A DNA stretch of 54,213 bases from a virus: the UHGV virus genome UHGV-0121358; one strand, given 5' to 3'. Every line of letters begins with the position of its first letter. The first letter of the stretch is position 1. The translations under genes and the position numbers were made by a program. Under the pieces are notes generated by a model that was not told the DNA's origin, did no database searches, and was given only the letters and a program-made list of their open reading frames with translations. This document shows positions 25,015 to 44,560 of the stretch, piece after piece.

Positions 25015-25091
25015 TTTTTCATCTCCCGGTATACGTCCACAGCAATAACCACAACTACAGCCACCAGCAATAGCATCTCATATGCGTTCAT
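25011..25091 (-). CDS. mini-ORF P6, 26-aa hydrophobic peptide (MNAYEMLLLVAVVVVIAVDVYREMKK); alternative start 25076
   Basis: Own translation; start overlaps 3' end of P5; AGGTAG SD-like. Confidence 0.4.
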   Translation of the reverse strand: MNAYEMLLLVAVVVVIAVDVYREMKK

Positions 25092-25185
25092 TGACACTAC
25101 CTATAACCAGACCAATGATGATAATTACGGCTACTACGCAAAACATCATCCCGCACATAATCGCCAGTAATTCGAATATATCCAT
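25078..25185 (-). CDS. mini-ORF P5, 35-aa hydrophobic peptide (MDIFELLAIMCGMMFCVVAVIIIIGLVIGSVNERI)
   Basis: Inner part of track ORF 25078..25290; ATG at 25185 with AGGTGA SD 5 nt upstream. Confidence 0.45.
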   Translation of the reverse strand: MDIFELLAIMCGMMFCVVAVIIIIGLVIGSVNERI

Positions 25186-25359: not shown

Positions 25360-25464
25360 TCACCCCACCAAATACTTGATATATACGTTTATCAGCGCAA
25401 CTATAATAGAACCCACAAGAAACACAGAAACGCCGATTAATCCGGCGATGATGTAAGCATCCAT
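25360..25464 (-). CDS. mini-ORF P2, 34-aa hydrophobic peptide (MDAYIIAGLIGVSVFLVGSIIVALINVYIKYLVG)
   Basis: Own translation; weak SD, but ATG lies 4 nt after P1 stop (translational coupling). Confidence 0.4.
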   Translation of the reverse strand: MDAYIIAGLIGVSVFLVGSIIVALINVYIKYLVG

Positions 25465-25468
25465 AATA

Positions 25469-25537
25469 TCAATGTCCGTATATCAAGATCACAGCGGCAG
25501 CTATGCCAACAAATACGCCTAACAGAAAAGTAAACAT
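25469..25537 (-). CDS. mini-ORF P1, 22-aa hydrophobic peptide (MFTFLLGVFVGIAAAVILIYGH)
   Basis: Own translation; GAGAGGG SD; ATG 2 nt after the stop of the upstream 190-aa gene. Confidence 0.45.
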   Translation of the reverse strand: MFTFLLGVFVGIAAAVILIYGH

Positions 25538-25539
25538 AA

Positions 25540-26112
25540 TTACCCTCTCTTAAAGCTCATAACGCGCGGTACAAGCGCCTCTTTTGCTTTCGGCTTACGT
25601 TTGCCTTTCTTAGCTGGTTTTTTCTCTTCTTTCGGCTCCTCTGCCTGTTCTGCTGCATCAGTCGCCTGCTCTGCCTTTTCTAACGCCTGCTCAACGACTT
25701 CAGCCGCCTGCATCGCTGTGATCTGTGCTTCGTTTGATTCAGCCAGGATTGGGAAGAATGCGTCAAAGATACGTCCAACCATGTAAGCGTAAGTCTCATT
25801 CGCAGGATGAGTAGGATCAGTGGTCGCCACGACGCCTACATCACTTAAAACGTGGAATGTAGTGTGAGCGCATTCATGGACCAGCGTTCCAGTCTCATTG
25901 TTGAATACTGCGATCACGTAGAAATTACCGCCGGTCTCACCAGTACAGGTTAACGTCAGACCGCCAGCTAGTTCGAAATCAGGTTCGATTGGTATTCCGG
26001 CCTTTTCGCAAAATTCATAGAACATCTCGCGGGTCGGGCAAAAGAAAACGGTTGTATGCTCAAAGAGCGGGACTTTGAATTGAGGCAACTTAATGCCTTT
26101 AGCCTTAGCCAT
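25540..26112 (-). CDS. hypothetical protein with HExxH motif (HECAH) and Lys/Ala/Glu-rich C-terminal tail
   Basis: Track ORF, 190 aa; GGAG SD; motif LVHECAHTTFH; low-complexity basic tail. Confidence 0.6.
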   Translation of the reverse strand: MAKAKGIKLPQFKVPLFEHTTVFFCPTREMFYEFCEKAGIPIEPDFELAGGLTLTCTGETGGNFYVIAVFNNETGTLVHECAHTTFHVLSDVGVVATTDPTHPANETYAYMVGRIFDAFFPILAESNEAQITAMQAAEVVEQALEKAEQATDAAEQAEEPKEEKKPAKKGKRKPKAKEALVPRVMSFKRG

Positions 26113-26381: not shown

Positions 26382-26870
26382 TTATTCTTTGCGTAAGCAC
26401 TGCGTATTGATGTAGTCCTGCAATCCGGTGATCTTCGCGTCTTTTTCTTTTAATTGTTCTCTGAGGGATAGATAAGCCGATTCAGCGTCTGGAGTGAGTC
26501 TACAGGTGGCTCCATCAATGCGGCTGGCGGTTCCGGTATTGTCGAGCAATCGCACTGGTTCGGCGTTGACGTGCAACCGGATAGCGCCGCTATCAATACC
26601 AGTGCGCAGATCGGCAATGTCAGATCTGATAGCTTTAATCTCATCGTGATACCTCTTATCAAGTTTTGACAGTTCGGCGTTTCGCTCCTTCATCTGCTGA
26701 ATAGTGTTACTTGCCGTTTTCAGTGCGCCTTTCGTTACCGTGACTTCTTCCTGTAACCTTGCCGCCTCACCCTGGTAATAACATGTTACGGCGGTCAGTC
26801 CGGCAATAATGCAAACAACAGCGGCGATAATTAACGCCTTCACCTTGTCCACGTTTCCCCCCATTCGCAA
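26382..26870 (-). CDS. Rz: i-spanin Rz
   Basis: Track ORF; N-terminal TM segment then coiled-coil; follows endolysin; contains embedded Rz1 frame. Confidence 0.75.
26450..26644 (-). CDS. Rz1: o-spanin Rz1 (embedded in Rz, alternate frame)
   Basis: Track ORF 26450..26662; from ATG at 26644 gives [24 protein letters not shown]... with lipobox LSGC and Pro-rich mature region. Confidence 0.65.
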   Translation of the reverse strand: MRLKLSDLTLPICALVLIAALSGCTSTPNQCDCSTIPEPPAALMEPPVDSLQTLNRLIYPSENN

Positions 26871-27331
26871 ACGGCATATTCAACCTCGCGGCGGTTTACC
26901 AGGCCTTGCCACTTCTTACCGCCAGCGTATACCCAGCGTTTAAGCTGTGCGCACGCTTCTGATTTCTTGCCGTCATTGAGTAGTTTTAGTAAGGTTGATG
27001 TTTTGAAGTTGGTAGCGCCTACGTTATAGGCGAAGGAATAAAGTGCAGCGCGGGTAAAATCTGATATTTCGACTTTGATATATGGGTCAATCGCTTTTGC
27101 GGTCTTGTGTAGATCTTTATTTAACAAAGCATCGCATTCTGATTGCGTGTAAGTCTTACCAAGCATGATGTCTTTTCCGACGTGTCCATAACATATCGTG
27201 TAAACACCGATGACATCTCTGTACGGCTTATACTCAACGCCTTCAAGATCTTTTATCATCATCCCCGCAATAGCGATCGCCCCACCAGCCGCCGCCGCAA
27301 TAATCTTATTTTTCAGCGATTGGCTAATCAT
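26840..27331 (-). CDS. SAR endolysin (phage-21 R21-like lysozyme)
   Basis: Track ORF 26840..27412; ATG at 27331. N-terminal signal-anchor ([13 protein letters not shown]) then [21 protein letters not shown]...[11 protein letters not shown]...LLNKDL...NPYIKV...[14 protein letters not shown] closely matches my recollection of phage 21 R21. Confidence 0.85.
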
Positions 27332-27332
27332 G

Positions 27333-27533
27333 TTACTTATTCCCCATTCGCGCGTCGTGTTCCTCTTGCGCTCGCTTGTTCTCCTGTGATTTGAAGTAAT
27401 AATTAACGGCAAATGTGCCTACGGTTGATAAGATACCCACAAAGACGGCAATATCATTGATGGTTATCGCGCCGAAAAAAGCAGTTACGGCCCCAGTCAC
27501 ATACGCACATGCCTCCCGTATTCTGTCGAACAT
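27333..27533 (-). CDS. holin (pinholin-like, two TM segments)
   Basis: Track ORF 27333..27578; ATG at 27533 with GGAGGT SD; 66 aa, two hydrophobic segments and charged C-terminus, paired with a SAR endolysin. Confidence 0.75.
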
Positions 27534-32040: not shown

Positions 32041-32763
32041 TCATTCACCTCGCGTCACTCGTTTAATTTCGTTATCAGCCCGCGCCTCTTCTTTGAACAA
32101 TTCAGCGATGGCGTCTTCATAGAAAACCCGGTATTTTTTCCACCATGTTGATCGGCTTACCGGAAATACAAGCTGATTAACCGCACGCCGGACAAGATCT
32201 ACAGGGAAACGCGAGTACCCGCGCCCGCCGCAATGCTGGCACGTTTTGAACACTGGCATTTCCGCTGCTTCACTGGCTGCTTTATCCGGTATCTCGCCGC
32301 GCCCTTTGCATCGTTTACAATGATTGCGAACTTTTCCATGCCCCTTGCATTTTTTGCAAAGGTGTTTTTCTCCGTAGTCGTCAAACGTAAATTTATATCC
32401 GCCGCAATCCATACAAGTTTTTTCTGTCGCGGCACTCTGGCAGTAATCCCGAAACGCGAAAACGGCAACAAGAATAATAAGATCATTGCGTTTGTCCTCG
32501 TCCAGCTCCATGACGTATTCGTAATCTTTTGCCATAGCTCTTAAACGCTCTGTAAGCAAAACTACGGCCCTGTGTTTTTCGGCTTGCGATAGTTCCATCT
32601 TCCCTAAAAAAGCGCTGTAACCAAGCTCTACGCGCGATTGCGCCATACCTGCAGCGGTTAGCGCATCAGTCGTATTAAGCGCATCCGGGGATGTGCCCCG
32701 GCTTTCGTCTGATAATCGCGGTGATTTGGGAAAGTGGAATTTCAGAATGGATTCTAAATTCAT
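32041..32763 (-). CDS. Q: late-gene antiterminator Q (lambda Q family)
   Basis: Track ORF; N-terminus MNLESILKFHFPKSPRLSDESRGTSPD...AAGMAQS and C-terminal Cys-rich motifs (CKRCKGRG, CQHCGGRGYSRFP) match my recollection of lambda Q. Confidence 0.8.
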   Translation of the reverse strand: MNLESILKFHFPKSPRLSDESRGTSPDALNTTDALTAAGMAQSRVELGYSAFLGKMELSQAEKHRAVVLLTERLRAMAKDYEYVMELDEDKRNDLIILVAVFAFRDYCQSAATEKTCMDCGGYKFTFDDYGEKHLCKKCKGHGKVRNHCKRCKGRGEIPDKAASEAAEMPVFKTCQHCGGRGYSRFPVDLVRRAVNQLVFPVSRSTWWKKYRVFYEDAIAELFKEEARADNEIKRVTRGE

Positions 32764-36580: not shown

Positions 36581-36814
36581 TTAGAAATAATCCTGCTCCG
36601 TCCCCCAGCGGTTATTCAGATACCCCACCAACCACACAAAACGCTCAATGCTGATTAGCGGGGCGACCTTGCGATAATGCTTGTCGAGTATCAGCCGCGT
36701 GGCTTTATCGCTGTAGCCGTTCTTCTCTACCTCCGCTTTGCAGGCCGAAAGCGCGGCGCGGGCGGCAGTCTTTACGGCGTTAAATTGCGGCTCTGACATA
36801 TTGAATAAGGCCAT
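36581..36814 (-). CDS. hypothetical protein
   Basis: Track ORF 36581..36973 truncated to ATG at 36814 (MALFNMSEPQF...). Confidence 0.4.
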   Translation of the reverse strand: MALFNMSEPQFNAVKTAARAALSACKAEVEKNGYSDKATRLILDKHYRKVAPLISIERFVWLVGYLNNRWGTEQDYF

Positions 36815-36818
36815 AGGA

Positions 36819-37070
36819 TCACCATGTGTCAGTCCAATCCGGCGCGGCAGTCCAGCAAAAACCAATGAATGCGCTAACAGCCAATAAAGCGCGGGCTGCA
36901 AAAAGAATATTCCCAATGTCGTTAAATTCAGGAAGCGACCACGTAATAAACATAGCCCCCAGCATAATAACACCGATAACAGTCAGGGCCGCCAGGAAAA
37001 CAAAAAGCGTAGCCAAAAGCCACGCCCCCAACCAGTTAAAAAAGCTCTTAAGCATTTTAAACGTCCTCAA
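36819..37070 (-). CDS. hypothetical membrane protein
   Basis: Track ORF; three hydrophobic segments. Confidence 0.4.
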   Translation of the reverse strand: MRTFKMLKSFFNWLGAWLLATLFVFLAALTVIGVIMLGAMFITWSLPEFNDIGNILFAARALLAVSAFIGFCWTAAPDWTDTW

Positions 37071-37444: not shown

Positions 37445-37542
37445 ACATTACCTCATATGGTATTCAATAAACCACCTGATAAACAGGTATAAGGCAATAA
37501 AACCCCAGAAACAGCACATATAAAACAATGTATCGTCCATAA

Positions 37543-38827: not shown

Positions 38828-39008
38828 TTAACACCTCAACATATTGTTCAAGATGCCATTGACCCACCTCATCATCTTCCTCGTCAAATAATGTTACCTG
38901 ACCACCAGGCCCAAAAGAAAAGGCAGCTATGATAAATTTATACCCATACCACGTACGGATCTTTTCGCCGCCTTTTAAATCTTTAACTTTTACCAATTTT
39001 ATAGCCAT
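38817..39008 (-). CDS. hypothetical protein
   Basis: Track ORF. Confidence 0.4.
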   Translation of the reverse strand: MAIKLVKVKDLKGGEKIRTWYGYKFIIAAFSFGPGGQVTLFDEEDDEVGQWHLEQYVEVLNEN

Positions 39009-39271
39009 ACGCCGAACATCCCATTCAGTCCGGCGAACAATTTCCGCCAGTGGTCTTCAACATAAGCCCGGAACGGCTTAACGCGAACGTTACGGGCCTT
39101 CAGTTCGATCTTGTCAAAGAAGCGCGGCTCTATAATTGTTCCGTCCAGATATTTAACCAGGATCGGACGCTCAAGATCGTTATATGTCTTATTCAGCACA
39201 ACCAGACCAGGGTCTTTACGGTATTCCGGGAGCACGACCAGATCACCCGTTTTGATATTCATGAATGGCAT
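38999..39271 (-). CDS. hypothetical protein
   Basis: Track ORF 38999..39274 (GTG) with ATG at 39271; ATG overlaps stop of upstream mini-ORF. Confidence 0.45.
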   Translation of the reverse strand: MPFMNIKTGDLVVLPEYRKDPGLVVLNKTYNDLERPILVKYLDGTIIEPRFFDKIELKARNVRVKPFRAYVEDHWRKLFAGLNGMFGVWL

Positions 39272-39387
39272 CACATCACCCCGCCGATATAGCTAATAAT
39301 TGCCGCAGTCGCGCCAGCTATTACCACCATGAAGACGAAAGCGACCACATAGAAAACAGCCTTGACAGTATTTTTGTCGACTCGCAT
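39271..39387 (-). CDS. possible 38-aa membrane mini-protein (MRVDKNTVKAVFYVVAFVFMVVIAGATAAIISYIGGVM)
   Basis: Own translation; GAGG SD 6 nt upstream; below track cutoff. Confidence 0.3.
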   Translation of the reverse strand: MRVDKNTVKAVFYVVAFVFMVVIAGATAAIISYIGGVM

Positions 39388-39394
39388 ATAAACC

Positions 39395-39502
39395 TCACAT
39401 GTCAGTAATCAGCTTAACAATCGCCACAGTGATATAGAGTGACGCACTAAGGTAAACAGCCGCCACAGCAACGGCGGCGGATAACATTGCAATCTTTTTC
39501 AT
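39395..39502 (-). CDS. possible 35-aa membrane mini-protein (MKKIAMLSAAVAVAAVYLSASLYITVAIVKLITDM)
   Basis: Own translation; GGAGGGTGG SD; ATG overlaps stop of upstream gene (ATGA). Confidence 0.3.
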   Translation of the reverse strand: MKKIAMLSAAVAVAAVYLSASLYITVAIVKLITDM

Positions 39503-39750
39503 TTGCCACCCTCCGCAATGAACTTATCAAGCCATTTGTTATTAGCCAGCCGTTCGGCATCTTCGCCAAATGATTTACGTTCGCTTAATTCCTTGCGCGT
39601 CGGGAAAGGCCATTTATCGTGCCAGCCCGCCGACGTTTCGAATTCATAGTTATCGCCACCGAATTCGACAAATACATCACCATCGTCTGAGGTTTCCGCA
39701 GTCCCCTGAAAACCGCGCCCGTTATTTTCGCTTAATGTTGTAGCTGTCAT
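39499..39750 (-). CDS. hypothetical acidic protein
   Basis: Track ORF. Confidence 0.45.
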   Translation of the reverse strand: MTATTLSENNGRGFQGTAETSDDGDVFVEFGGDNYEFETSAGWHDKWPFPTRKELSERKSFGEDAERLANNKWLDKFIAEGGK

Positions 39751-39762
39751 GGTAATACCTCA

Positions 39763-40041
39763 TTAATCGTTAATAACCTTGCCCATACGCCCGCGATATT
39801 TGCGCATTCGTGGATCAACATATTCAGGCCACTGCATATCATCAGTTTTCTGTAGCGGGTAAGAACTCGCTCGCCAGTTGTCAAACCAGATTTGCTTCGC
39901 GTACAGGTCACTAAATCTTTTCGCCATTCGATCCGCTGCCGTGCCGCATAAAAAAAGCCCGCGATCGATTTGATCGCGGGCTTCTTTTAATACTTGCTCT
40001 TTTGTTCGTGGTTGCGGTGGCGGTTTTAGACAATCACTCAT
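39763..40041 (-). CDS. hypothetical protein
   Basis: Track ORF 39763..40173 truncated to ATG at 40041, 16 nt after the SSB stop. Confidence 0.4.
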   Translation of the reverse strand: MSDCLKPPPQPRTKEQVLKEARDQIDRGLFLCGTAADRMAKRFSDLYAKQIWFDNWRASSYPLQKTDDMQWPEYVDPRMRKYRGRMGKVIND

Positions 40042-40057
40042 CGCTAACACATTGATT

Positions 40058-40477
40058 CTAAAAAGGAATATCGTCGTCGAAGTCCATCGGAGGCGGATTA
40101 TTCCCGTTATTATTCTGCTGCTGCGGCGGCGCTTTCTGCTGCTGTCCTTGCTGCTGGCCTTGTTGGTTAACATTCATGAATTCAAATTCATTAACCGCCA
40201 CTTCTACCGCAGTCCCCTTCGTGCCGTCGTTCCGGTCATATTGCCGAACATCCAGGCGACCGCTTACCACTATTTTTCCACCCTTGCGGATATGTGGCGC
40301 TAATTTTTCCGCACGCTCACCAAATACCAGGCAAGTGATCCACATTGTCCGCTTGTTATCACCGTAGCCATTCGTTACAGCTAACGGAAAACTACCAATC
40401 GCTTTACCGTTTTGCGTGTAGCGAACTTCCATGTCGTTTCCGATATTCCCGCCCAGCGTAATTGAATTCAAACTCAT
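40058..40477 (-). CDS. ssb: single-stranded DNA-binding protein
   Basis: Track ORF; OB-fold-like N-terminal region, Gln/Gly-rich linker and acidic C-terminal tip DFDDDIPF characteristic of SSB. Confidence 0.85.
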   Translation of the reverse strand: MSLNSITLGGNIGNDMEVRYTQNGKAIGSFPLAVTNGYGDNKRTMWITCLVFGERAEKLAPHIRKGGKIVVSGRLDVRQYDRNDGTKGTAVEVAVNEFEFMNVNQQGQQQGQQQKAPPQQQNNNGNNPPPMDFDDDIPF

Positions 40478-41121
40478 TAACCCATCTCCCCGTTAAGCTC
40501 TGCGACCCGGATGTCATAAACATCTTTTGCCTTGATTCGATGTTCCGATCCTTCCGGTAGTAATTTCCAGCATTTGCCAAATATTTCACGCAGCTTGTTA
40601 GCGTCCTGCGCTTTCGCTGCTGCATCACAGAAACGTGCTAATACTTCATCAGGATTTGGCGGCGCTTTCTTCTGCTGCGGTTGTTGTTTTGGTGGGTTTT
40701 TCTGTTGTCGCGGCTGCTGGCCTGTCTGCTTCGCGTAAGCATCAGTATCAGGATCGCGAGCATCATCTATACAGAATAAACCGTTCAAAGCATATTTACG
40801 CGCGTAACTTGATGTTGCTCCTGTTAGCTGGCTGGCGTCCATACCCTTCTTGTTTTCTTCCTCCCTGGCATAAGCAGTTACCGCTATTACGTCTTCACCG
40901 TCGCTTAGCGTCGCCGTTGCTTTCACATAATAGCGATTGCCGATCAGGACAATTTCATCACTAACAGTCAGCGTGATATTTTGAAGCAGTGGTTTAACCG
41001 CCTCTAAAATATCCTCCGCCGACCTGTAATTATATCCACCAAAATTATTACGCTGATTTTTCGGCGCGTTCAGCGTTTGCTGAATCGTCCATAGCTTTTT
41101 ATGTAACTCTGTTTTCACCAT
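40477..41121 (-). CDS. erf: Erf single-strand annealing recombinase
   Basis: Track ORF; blocks LNAPKNQ, EDILEAVKPLL, DEIVLIGNRYYVKATAT, AREEENKKGMDASQLTGATSSYARKYALNGLF closely match my recollection of P22 Erf. Confidence 0.85.
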   Translation of the reverse strand: MVKTELHKKLWTIQQTLNAPKNQRNNFGGYNYRSAEDILEAVKPLLQNITLTVSDEIVLIGNRYYVKATATLSDGEDVIAVTAYAREEENKKGMDASQLTGATSSYARKYALNGLFCIDDARDPDTDAYAKQTGQQPRQQKNPPKQQPQQKKAPPNPDEVLARFCDAAAKAQDANKLREIFGKCWKLLPEGSEHRIKAKDVYDIRVAELNGEMG

Positions 41122-41267: not shown

Positions 41268-41558
41268 TTAATGGTAGCGGACTTTATCCAGGGGTTTTTC
41301 CCCTAAATGGCGTGGTTGCGTTGCGTGGTAGTAGCTGCCGCTTTCATTTTCCGTATACCATTTTACTGATCCTTTGCGACGTTCTTTAATGCTATTTGGT
41401 TTGCATCTTTCCTCGTTTGCAAATCGAATAGCTTTATCCACATTGTCTGTTTTATTGATTGCAGGTGATGATTTTCTTTCGTTTTCTCTTTTTATCCTTC
41501 TGCGTTCCCTGGCATTCATTTTGCTATCACATTTACCATATATAATTGTAACGCTCAT
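41268..41558 (-). CDS. N: N-like transcription antiterminator (P22 gene 24-like)
   Basis: Track ORF; GGAG SD; N-terminus MSVTIIYGK...NARERRRIKRE with arginine-rich motif resembles P22 gp24 (MTVITYGK...AKTRRHERRR); nut-like site upstream. Confidence 0.7.
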   Translation of the reverse strand: MSVTIIYGKCDSKMNARERRRIKRENERKSSPAINKTDNVDKAIRFANEERCKPNSIKERRKGSVKWYTENESGSYYHATQPRHLGEKPLDKVRYH

Positions 41559-44458: not shown

Positions 44459-44560
44459 ATGGACGGTAAACACGTTTTCGCCCTGGCCTTTGCCATCGCT
44501 GCTGCAATCGCTGTTAACGTCGCTTTGTTCGGCGGTTTGTTCCTTCTTATCAATCCATAA
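44459..44560 (+). CDS. possible 33-aa hydrophobic mini-protein (MDGKHVFALAFAIAAAIAVNVALFGGLFLLINP)
   Basis: Own translation; GAGAGGA SD 8 nt upstream. Confidence 0.3.
   Translation: MDGKHVFALAFAIAAAIAVNVALFGGLFLLINP

Follow-up and report, generated by a model that had tools for sequence, protein, structure and literature searches.

Small transmembrane ORF families of phages and enterobacteria (Entero67K, PMC11188072) are composed of reading frames of fewer than 50 codons that evolve under purifying selection, carry no known domain, are hydrophobic with a predicted transmembrane segment, and are missed by standard gene callers. Families of small phage ORFs are also attributed, as cited in PMC11188072 (ref. 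33), to Fremin et al. (2022, Cell Rep). The two reading frames considered here, orfA and orfB, share all of these properties. Whereas those families are catalogue-level classes and not groups of homologues, orfA and orfB form a pair seen in mEpimmI phages only, whose members are adjacent, coupled and fixed in their operon position. As a lineage-specific pair they add to a familiar kind of gene, and databases already carry them as hypothetical proteins.

Among proteins with assigned roles, the nearest in form are the small inner-membrane regulators AcrZ, MgrB, MgtS/MgtR, KdpF and YohP, single-helix proteins of 26–50 residues that have no enzymatic domain and an N-in/C-out or similar orientation, as is predicted for the orfA and orfB products (PMC12648545, PMC12719787). 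Such regulators bind larger membrane proteins or perturb the membrane (PMC12648545; for YohP, PMC12719787). They have no sequence similarity to orfA or orfB, and they are encoded by stress-regulated chromosomal genes, whereas orfA and orfB are phage genes of a lytic early operon. The type I toxins Hok/Gef, Ldr, TisB, Ibs and Fst likewise match the pair in size, hydrophobicity and possession of a single membrane helix, and by analogy with them orfA and orfB are likely to be toxic on overproduction. The pair differs from these toxins in having no family match and no recognizable promoter or antisense RNA of its own, and in a layout that points to translation by coupling rather than to silencing.

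Phages themselves offer two further comparisons. Lambda cIII and Kil are, like the products of this locus, small accessory early products that depend on N and are encoded beside recombination genes, but they are not integral membrane helices, as the orfA and orfB products are predicted to be. T4 Imm, P22 SieA and HK97 gp15 are phage-encoded inner-membrane proteins, again as predicted here, but they are larger or multi-spanning, and SieA and gp15 are expressed from the prophage. Searches of Pfam and PHROGs gave no sequence similarity of orfA or orfB to any of these five proteins.

The locus within the mEpimmI early operon

The window, that is, the whole 54,213-nt viral DNA UHGV-0121358 that was analyzed, is by sequence similarity a phage of the mEp021/MagusPhagus (mEpimmI) group of temperate coliphages. 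An IMG/VR contig (3300045988_111075) is identical to the window across the orfA–orfB stretch; Escherichia phage MagusPhagus is 98.6% identical to the stretch, and mEp021 and mEp010/013/044/515/554 are 67–70% identical to it. The mEpimmI phages are Nus-dependent, non-lambdoid temperate coliphages, in which the Gp17 antitermination system and its position in the operon are established (PMC11893012).

Mapping of known genes onto the window delineates a single minus-strand early operon in the order gp17 (an N-like antiterminator), gp18, erf, ssb, abc2, gp22, orfA, orfB, gp23 ... ipe ... Q (Table 1). In mEp021-like phages, the early operon is the rightward one; in the window it occupies the minus strand. 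A preliminary description of this DNA had assigned to the early operon two adjacent minus-strand mini-ORFs, one of 35 and one of 38 codons. Their coordinates and strand proved exact, and both the mapping and the published gene organization (PMC11893012) bear out the placement, with the pair lying between gp17/erf/ssb/abc2 and ipe/methylases/ninG/Q on the same strand. The immediate neighbors are themselves poorly characterized. The upstream gp22 homologue matches DUF2737 at sub-threshold level only. The downstream gp23 homologue is labeled by PGAP as a "toxin-antitoxin system toxin subunit", a label for which our family searches found no support; it has a hydrophobic, invariant C-terminus, and the structure predicted for it to examine the label was of unusable quality (pLDDT 46.8).

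Table 1. Positions, in window coordinates, of orfA, orfB, their signals and the genes mapped around them
Feature	Position	Strand	Basis or remark
gp17, N-like antiterminator	41268-41558	-	Homology mapping
gp18		-	Homology mapping; between gp17 and erf in the operon listing
erf	40477-41121	-	Homology mapping
ssb	40058-40477	-	Homology mapping
abc2	39763-40041	-	Homology mapping
Canonical intrinsic terminator	39950-39983	-	Inside abc2; 12-13 bp GC-rich stem, then T7
gp22 homologue, upstream neighbor, 74-83 aa	39499-39750	-	Stop overlaps orfA start
orfA Shine-Dalgarno, GGAGG	39510-39514	-	7 nt upstream of ATG
orfA, 35 aa, MKKIAMLSAAVAVAAVYLSASLYITVAIVKLITDM	39395-39502	-	ORF list, conserved frame
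Terminator-like hairpin, GCCGCCGTTGCTGTGGCGGC then TGTTTACCTT	39459-39478	-	Inside orfA; hairpin scan
orfB Shine-Dalgarno, GAGG	39393-39396	-	5 nt upstream of ATG
orfB, 38 aa, MRVDKNTVKAVFYVVAFVFMVVIAGATAAIISYIGGVM	39271-39387	-	ORF list, conserved frame
gp23 homologue, downstream neighbor, 90 aa	38999-39271	-	Start overlaps orfB stop
ipe	36581-36814	-	Downstream in early operon
Methylases, ninG		-	Homology mapping; further downstream of gp23, with ipe and Q
Q	32043-32763	-	Downstream in early operon
Holin	27333-27533		Lysis cassette, late operon
Lysis genes (holin, endolysin, Rz)	26382-27533		Late operon, ~12 kb from orfA/orfB

The start signals interlock with the surrounding genes. The orfA ATG (39502-39500) overlaps the TGA of the gp22-like gene (39501-39499) as ATGA, and the orfB TGA (39273-39271) overlaps the gp23 ATG (39271-39269) as TGATG, while the GAGG preceding orfB is partly built from the orfA stop codon (TGAGG). 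The good Shine-Dalgarno sequences reported for the two ORFs are both present; the start/stop overlaps reported with them hold for the outer neighbors but not between orfA and orfB, which lie 7 nt apart without mutual overlap. These arrangements recur among the relatives whose collection is described below. The GGAGG...ATGA configuration at the orfA start is found in all 47 sources, the TGAGG that joins the orfA stop to the orfB Shine-Dalgarno sequence in 46 of 47 (the M1/5 type has TGAG), and the orfB stop overlaps or abuts the downstream start in every source, as TGATG, ATGA or TAATG. The ribosome-binding sites of both ORFs are correctly spaced in the window, and their motifs are conserved across sources; the distance from the orfB site to its ATG varies. 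By this layout both genes are arranged for translational coupling with their neighbors.

The preliminary description had also called the pair unannotated, which is correct for the mEp021 record (MH706966), where both genes are missing, and for most RefSeq PGAP annotation, but not for many other GenBank entries, for UniRef or for PHANOTATE-based records. The exact peptides of the window are public as "hypothetical" or "uncharacterised" proteins on about 420 contigs each, examples being ELC61238.1, WGI_01967/WGI_01968 (E. coli KTE44) and, in UniRef, an orfA variant of 37 aa. Both genes are listed in PHANOTATE-based records (MagusPhagus CDS0112/0113, mEp013_28/29, and mEp010/044/515/554), and in most prophages the RefSeq PGAP annotation is empty over about 230 bp at the pair, UMNK88 alone among those inspected listing orfB. 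Neither orfA nor orfB is mentioned in the paper on the mEpimmI genomes or in its supplements (PMC11893012).

Outside the group, the searches returned very little. Neither Pfam nor NCBIfam (at E<=1) nor PADLOC matched orfA or orfB, PHROGs gave nothing save a chance-level match to orfB (E=0.026), and profile searches of PDB sequences with either ORF found nothing at E<=10. An exhaustive HMMER search of 1.84 billion cluster representatives with the orfB profile yielded three matches, all from its own family; a fused orfA+orfB profile run against a large protein index recovered only 40-aa orfB variants and four frameshifted or fused forms; and tblastn of orfB against phages found only seven phages of its own group. 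The stretch is present in 33 of 5,426 complete E. coli genomes, and species-representative genomes gave no confirmed match. The pair thus appears to be lineage-specific to mEpimmI phages, no homologues having been found elsewhere.

Conservation of the frames and the hairpin inside orfA

Conservation of the frames in related phages had been set beforehand as the test of the two ORFs. A region-anchored set adds 46 sources to the window: 31 contigs from IMG/VR, 8 prophages of E. coli and 7 phages from GenBank. All 47 members of this set have the two frames intact. To guard against circularity, a second set of 47 IMG/VR loci was collected through the downstream gp23 homologue; 46 of these include the upstream DNA, and both ORFs are intact in 45 of the 46 informative loci. 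The exception (L055) carries a 1-nt change that abolishes the canonical ATG of orfA and leaves orfB intact. Wherever the flanking gene is found, orfA and orfB are present and adjacent.

The manner in which the sequences diverge is that of coding DNA. Between the window clade and the mEp021 clade, orfA differs by an indel of 6 nt and orfB by one of 3 nt. Indels inside either ORF come in multiples of three, while the orfA–orfB spacer is free to vary in length, so that the relative frame of the two ORFs changes from clade to clade. By the Nei–Gojobori method, comparison with the mEp021 clade gives pS 0.76-0.86 and pN 0.15-0.21 for orfA, whose synonymous sites are saturated, and pS 0.67-0.74, pN 0.33-0.34 and dN/dS 0.15-0.26 for orfB. 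Inside the mEp021 clade, pS is 0.15-0.46 against a pN of 0.01-0.13, with 8-9 synonymous changes for each non-synonymous one in several comparisons. Parsimony over the distinct nucleotide versions distributes changes among the three codon positions as 45/26/94 in orfA (p=2e-10) and 42/31/84 in orfB (p=3e-7). Every distinct nucleotide version (23/23 for orfA, 29/29 for orfB) keeps its coding frame open, and in each of them stops occur in the other two forward frames. On this comparative evidence, orfA and orfB are genuine, separate protein-coding genes under purifying selection throughout the group. The possibility of one split gene, or of a read-through fusion, was rejected, since clades disagree in the frame of one ORF relative to the other and a separate Shine-Dalgarno sequence precedes each; paralogy of the two was likewise rejected (hhalign probability 1.8%). 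Published mass spectrometry on the group covers virion proteins only (PMC11893012).

A contrary reading would hold that the stretch is a non-coding spacer with an intrinsic terminator, and that both ORFs are chance products of its composition. It draws on record MH706966, which has no genes here and a predicted terminator (TERM_2) inside orfA, on the terminator-like hairpin that the window also possesses (39478-39459), and on the RefSeq PGAP gap at the pair. The hairpin of the window has an 8-bp stem and a tail, TGTTTACCTT, that makes a poor U-tract. It is weakened in a relative of 88.7% identity (L008), and the mEp021 clade has a different hairpin at another position in orfA. Over 19 distinct sequences, the folding energy of orfA does not leave the range spanned by synonymous-codon controls (z -1.8 to +1.2), and Rfam has no match in 39271-39502. 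GC-rich hairpins are to be expected where Ala, Val and Leu codons cluster, and we judge the orfA hairpin to be probably a by-product of its Ala/Val codons and not a conserved element, although it may cause weak local attenuation in individual phages, this one included. A conserved RNA structure or terminator in orfA was rejected on these grounds: unconserved position, folding like that of controls, and an empty Rfam search. Nor would a spacer account for stops that fall in the alternative forward frames of every version and in none of the coding frames, for the third-position bias of substitutions, or for ORF-internal indels in multiples of three. The conservation pattern largely refutes the non-coding reading, which we regard as exceedingly improbable.

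The predicted membrane peptides

Both ORFs had been proposed to encode single hydrophobic helices, and the calculations agree. The best 19-residue Kyte–Doolittle mean is 2.19 for orfA and 2.58 for orfB. Approximate Hessa sums for the best 19-23-residue segment range from about +0.3 to -1.8 kcal/mol across orfA variants and from -1.3 to -4.2 kcal/mol across orfB variants; on this scale, the orfA of the window stands at about +0.3 kcal/mol and is of marginal hydrophobicity. An AlphaFold2 model of orfB is a single helix over residues 5-37 (pLDDT 90.8). When the ATG/GTG ORFs of 25-60 codons in the window were filtered for hydrophobicity together with a Shine-Dalgarno sequence, 12 of 736 passed, orfA and orfB among them, and this joint signal is far more than expected by chance. 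Several further small hydrophobic ORFs are present in the window and in MagusPhagus, which makes plausible the earlier suggestion that the phage carries more genes of this type.

A single long hydrophobic segment makes up most of each peptide. The orfA product begins with one or two lysines, followed by 26-28 hydrophobic residues of which the first half is Ala/Leu-rich and variable and precedes a strongly conserved core, Y-L-S-x-S-L-Y-I-T-V-A-I-[IV]-K-L-I; M1/5-type prophages carry a divergent orfA, MSMVKIAALAAAFVIGVIYITASFYVAVFIAELIVALLG, in which the pattern is kept with glutamate for lysine. The orfB product starts with a short charged, K/R-rich segment, M-[KR]-V-x-K-[DN], and continues with about 28 hydrophobic residues; an alignment of eight variants reveals F12, F17, F19, V21, V22, G25, A28 and A29 as invariant. 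From these features, each product is predicted to be a bitopic inner-membrane microprotein of about 35-40 residues. By the positive-inside rule alone, both would be oriented N-in/C-out, with a short positive N-terminus in the cytoplasm, one membrane-crossing helix, and few residues in the periplasm. Helical (100-degree) periodicity of the variability was not significant, the observed moment being reached by 17% of shuffles for orfA and 56% for orfB; hence there is no single binding face to point to.

Expression, possible function and meaning

The timing of expression can be considered from the surrounding signals. The canonical terminator inside abc2 lies about 450 nt upstream of orfA, and the same site is an ARNold-predicted terminator in five mEp phage records. 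A consensus scan found no promoter-like site on the strand of the pair between this terminator and the pair, nor on either strand at or across 39271-39502, the latter being a weak negative that comes from the consensus scan alone. Given the abc2 terminator and no nearer promoter-like site, transcription of the pair would occur only by read-through or by Gp17-antiterminated polymerase, and such dependence would make the pair delayed-early. We infer that orfA and orfB are delayed-early genes that are not expressed from the prophage.

Taken as a whole, it is highly probable that orfA and orfB are two genuine, coupled and selected genes encoding bitopic inner-membrane microproteins made at delayed-early times. 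Lytic transcription past the abc2 terminator would yield both peptides, which would insert into the inner membrane during lytic development, find partners there by intramembrane contact (each other, the product of the coupled gp23, or a host membrane protein), and so alter host membrane function during infection. Peptides this short cannot accommodate a catalytic domain and would be expected to act through intramembrane contacts, as characterized bacterial small membrane proteins do (review PMC12648545). Helix–helix binding, whether between the two peptides, with a host inner-membrane protein or complex, or both, is, by this analogy, a possible mode of action that we put forward tentatively. 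Direct depolarization of the membrane, in the manner of a kil-type toxin, is less likely, as is a role in keeping out a second infecting phage at the inner membrane.

Other functions deserve weighing against this one. Small phage membrane proteins such as T4 Imm, P22 SieA and HK97 gp15 are known to act in exclusion at the inner membrane, and the orfA and orfB products, being small, membrane-spanning and phage-encoded, could be exclusion proteins of that type or else lysis-timing proteins (holin, antiholin or pinholin-like). Yet the lysis cassette is remote and belongs to the late operon (Table 1), the peptides have neither a charged C-terminal tail nor a dual-start motif, and PHROGs gave no match to holin or exclusion families and PADLOC no match. 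The exclusion factor demonstrated for the group is a lipoprotein encoded elsewhere in the genome (PMC11893012), and expression from a repressed prophage is unlikely because of the operon position and the upstream terminator; together these make the exclusion and lysis roles distinctly improbable. The orfA product alone might instead be a Sec-type signal peptide followed by a 14-residue exported peptide that would be set free in the periplasm or outside the cell, where it might serve as a signal or an antimicrobial. By eye it can be parsed into an n-region with K, an Ala/Leu-rich h-region, and a c-region of S-x-S then LYITVAIIKLITNM, with small residues at -3/-1 (SAS, SVS, SLS, and AAS/TAS in variants), and in most orfA variants conservation is stronger in the second half of the peptide than in the first. 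The putative mature part, LYITVAI[IV]KLI, is however hydrophobic and continuous with the h-region, with no Pro/Gly break before the site, so that the 26-28 residues read as one membrane helix; moreover, in the M1/5 type it is the C-terminal half that has strongly diverged while the N-terminal KIAAL is kept. An exported peptide is accordingly very unlikely.

Prophage-stabilizing or host-killing membrane toxins under antisense-RNA control, resembling the type I toxins Hok, Ldr, TisB, Ibs and Fst, would share the size, hydrophobicity and single-helix architecture of the pair; type I systems carried by prophages have been described (review PMC12648545), and PGAP gives the neighboring gp23 its toxin label. 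That label lacks family support, though, and the pair itself matches none of the toxin families in Pfam or NCBIfam at E<=1, shows no promoter-like site in the consensus scan for the pair or for an antisense RNA, and has no antitoxin RNA in Rfam. Exposed Shine-Dalgarno sequences and coupling in a long operon downstream of a terminator are, in addition, the opposite of an autonomous, silenced layout, and we consider a type I system highly improbable here. To return to delayed-early microproteins acting by helix contacts, a more specific and rather unlikely version is that the pair, possibly together with gp23, would be a core module of mEpimmI phages that forms a two-peptide inner-membrane hetero-oligomer, with a job new for two-peptide phage systems. 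If that were true, the hetero-oligomer would gate or block a host complex (FtsH, a division protein or a transporter) or dissipate the membrane potential early and in a controlled way.

No current view is overturned by the finding. It provides a clean worked example of hydrophobic phage-operon ORFs of fewer than 40 codons being validated by comparative sequence alone, and it identifies an annotation to correct, as neither the mEp021 reference record nor the RefSeq annotation of prophages contains the two genes. In the mEp021 record, a predicted terminator stands in place of the genes, and that terminator lacks support from the comparative evidence. The mEpimmI phages are a recently described and prevalent group of gut coliphages, most of whose early genes are without known function. 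Within that group, membrane microproteins that are always paired and encoded beside recombination and anti-RecBCD genes would be cheap and tractable targets for study.

Candidate terminator within abc2

The coding sequence of abc2, the anti-RecBCD gene of the early operon, contains an intrinsic terminator of textbook form, AAGCCCGCGATC-loop-GATCGCGGGCTT followed by TTTTTTTA, the DNA of which encodes ...EARDQIDRGLFLCG... within the protein. A terminator is likewise annotated in abc2 of five mEp phages, as predicted by ARNold, and Rfam returns leader-type matches to the window terminator, all of them sub-threshold. Such an element, lying within an ORF of an operon under N-type antitermination, would gate all downstream genes, including both mini-genes, orfA and orfB. 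The junction between ssb and abc2 is a variable spot across the group (loci L002, L006 and L007; locus positions 2310-2874): the two genes adjoin in the window and in its close relative MagusPhagus, and mEp021, mEp515 and mEp554 carry ~0.5 kb of additional DNA there, which in mEp554 includes an "endonuclease VII" ORF.

Features in and around the early operon and further small hydrophobic ORFs
Feature	Position	Strand	Description
Terminator in abc2	39950-39983	-	intrinsic
ORF antisense to orfB	39265-39408	+	47 aa
gp23 homologue	38999-39271	-	90 aa, downstream of orfB
ORF upstream of ipe	36819-37070	-	~78-83 aa, two hydrophobic helices; homologue of mEp021_28
Small hydrophobic ORF	37448-37540	-	30 aa
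Small hydrophobic ORF	44459-44560	+	33 aa
Small hydrophobic ORF	25078-25185	-	35 aa
Late-operon array	~25371-25543	-	small hydrophobic ORFs

Reading frames at orfB and its neighbours

A plus-strand ORF of 47 aa runs antisense to orfB. One reverse frame lacks stops in 24 of the 29 orfB versions, but successive NTN codons for hydrophobic residues would be expected to leave the opposite strand open in this way, and substitutions by codon position point to the minus-strand frame as the coding one. Damaged alleles of the mini-genes are rare, each deriving from one contig: orfA of L055 (IMGVR_UViG_3300045988_060283) lacks a canonical ATG through a one-nucleotide change in an A-run, two orfB variants (P0024, P0025) are frameshifted, P0026 fuses orfB to gp23, and in P0027 a deletion has joined the first 24 codons of orfA to the end of orfB, which is read out of frame. 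These alleles may be assembly errors.

For the gp23 homologue, PGAP gives the name "toxin-antitoxin system toxin subunit" and the mEp021 record "putative toxin-antitoxin system subunit", a label that looks unsupported. The protein has no match in Pfam, NCBIfam, PADLOC or PDB, occurs in this mEpimmI phage group only, and yields an AF2 model with a pLDDT of 46.8; its hydrophobic C-terminus bears a near-invariant LFAGLNGM[FY]GV motif.

Further small hydrophobic ORFs

Directly upstream of ipe, the single two-helix ORF of the window corresponds in the MagusPhagus annotation to a pair of distinct ORFs that overlap each other (CDS0103/0102; 42 and 44 aa), reflecting either a frameshift split in MagusPhagus or a gene fusion in the window. 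The remaining small hydrophobic ORFs, including the late-operon array between Rz and terminase, have annotated MagusPhagus counterparts (CDS0106, CDS0006, CDS0058/0059 and the 47-aa CDS0054). These additional candidates fit the remark in the preliminary description that this phage carries many such genes.
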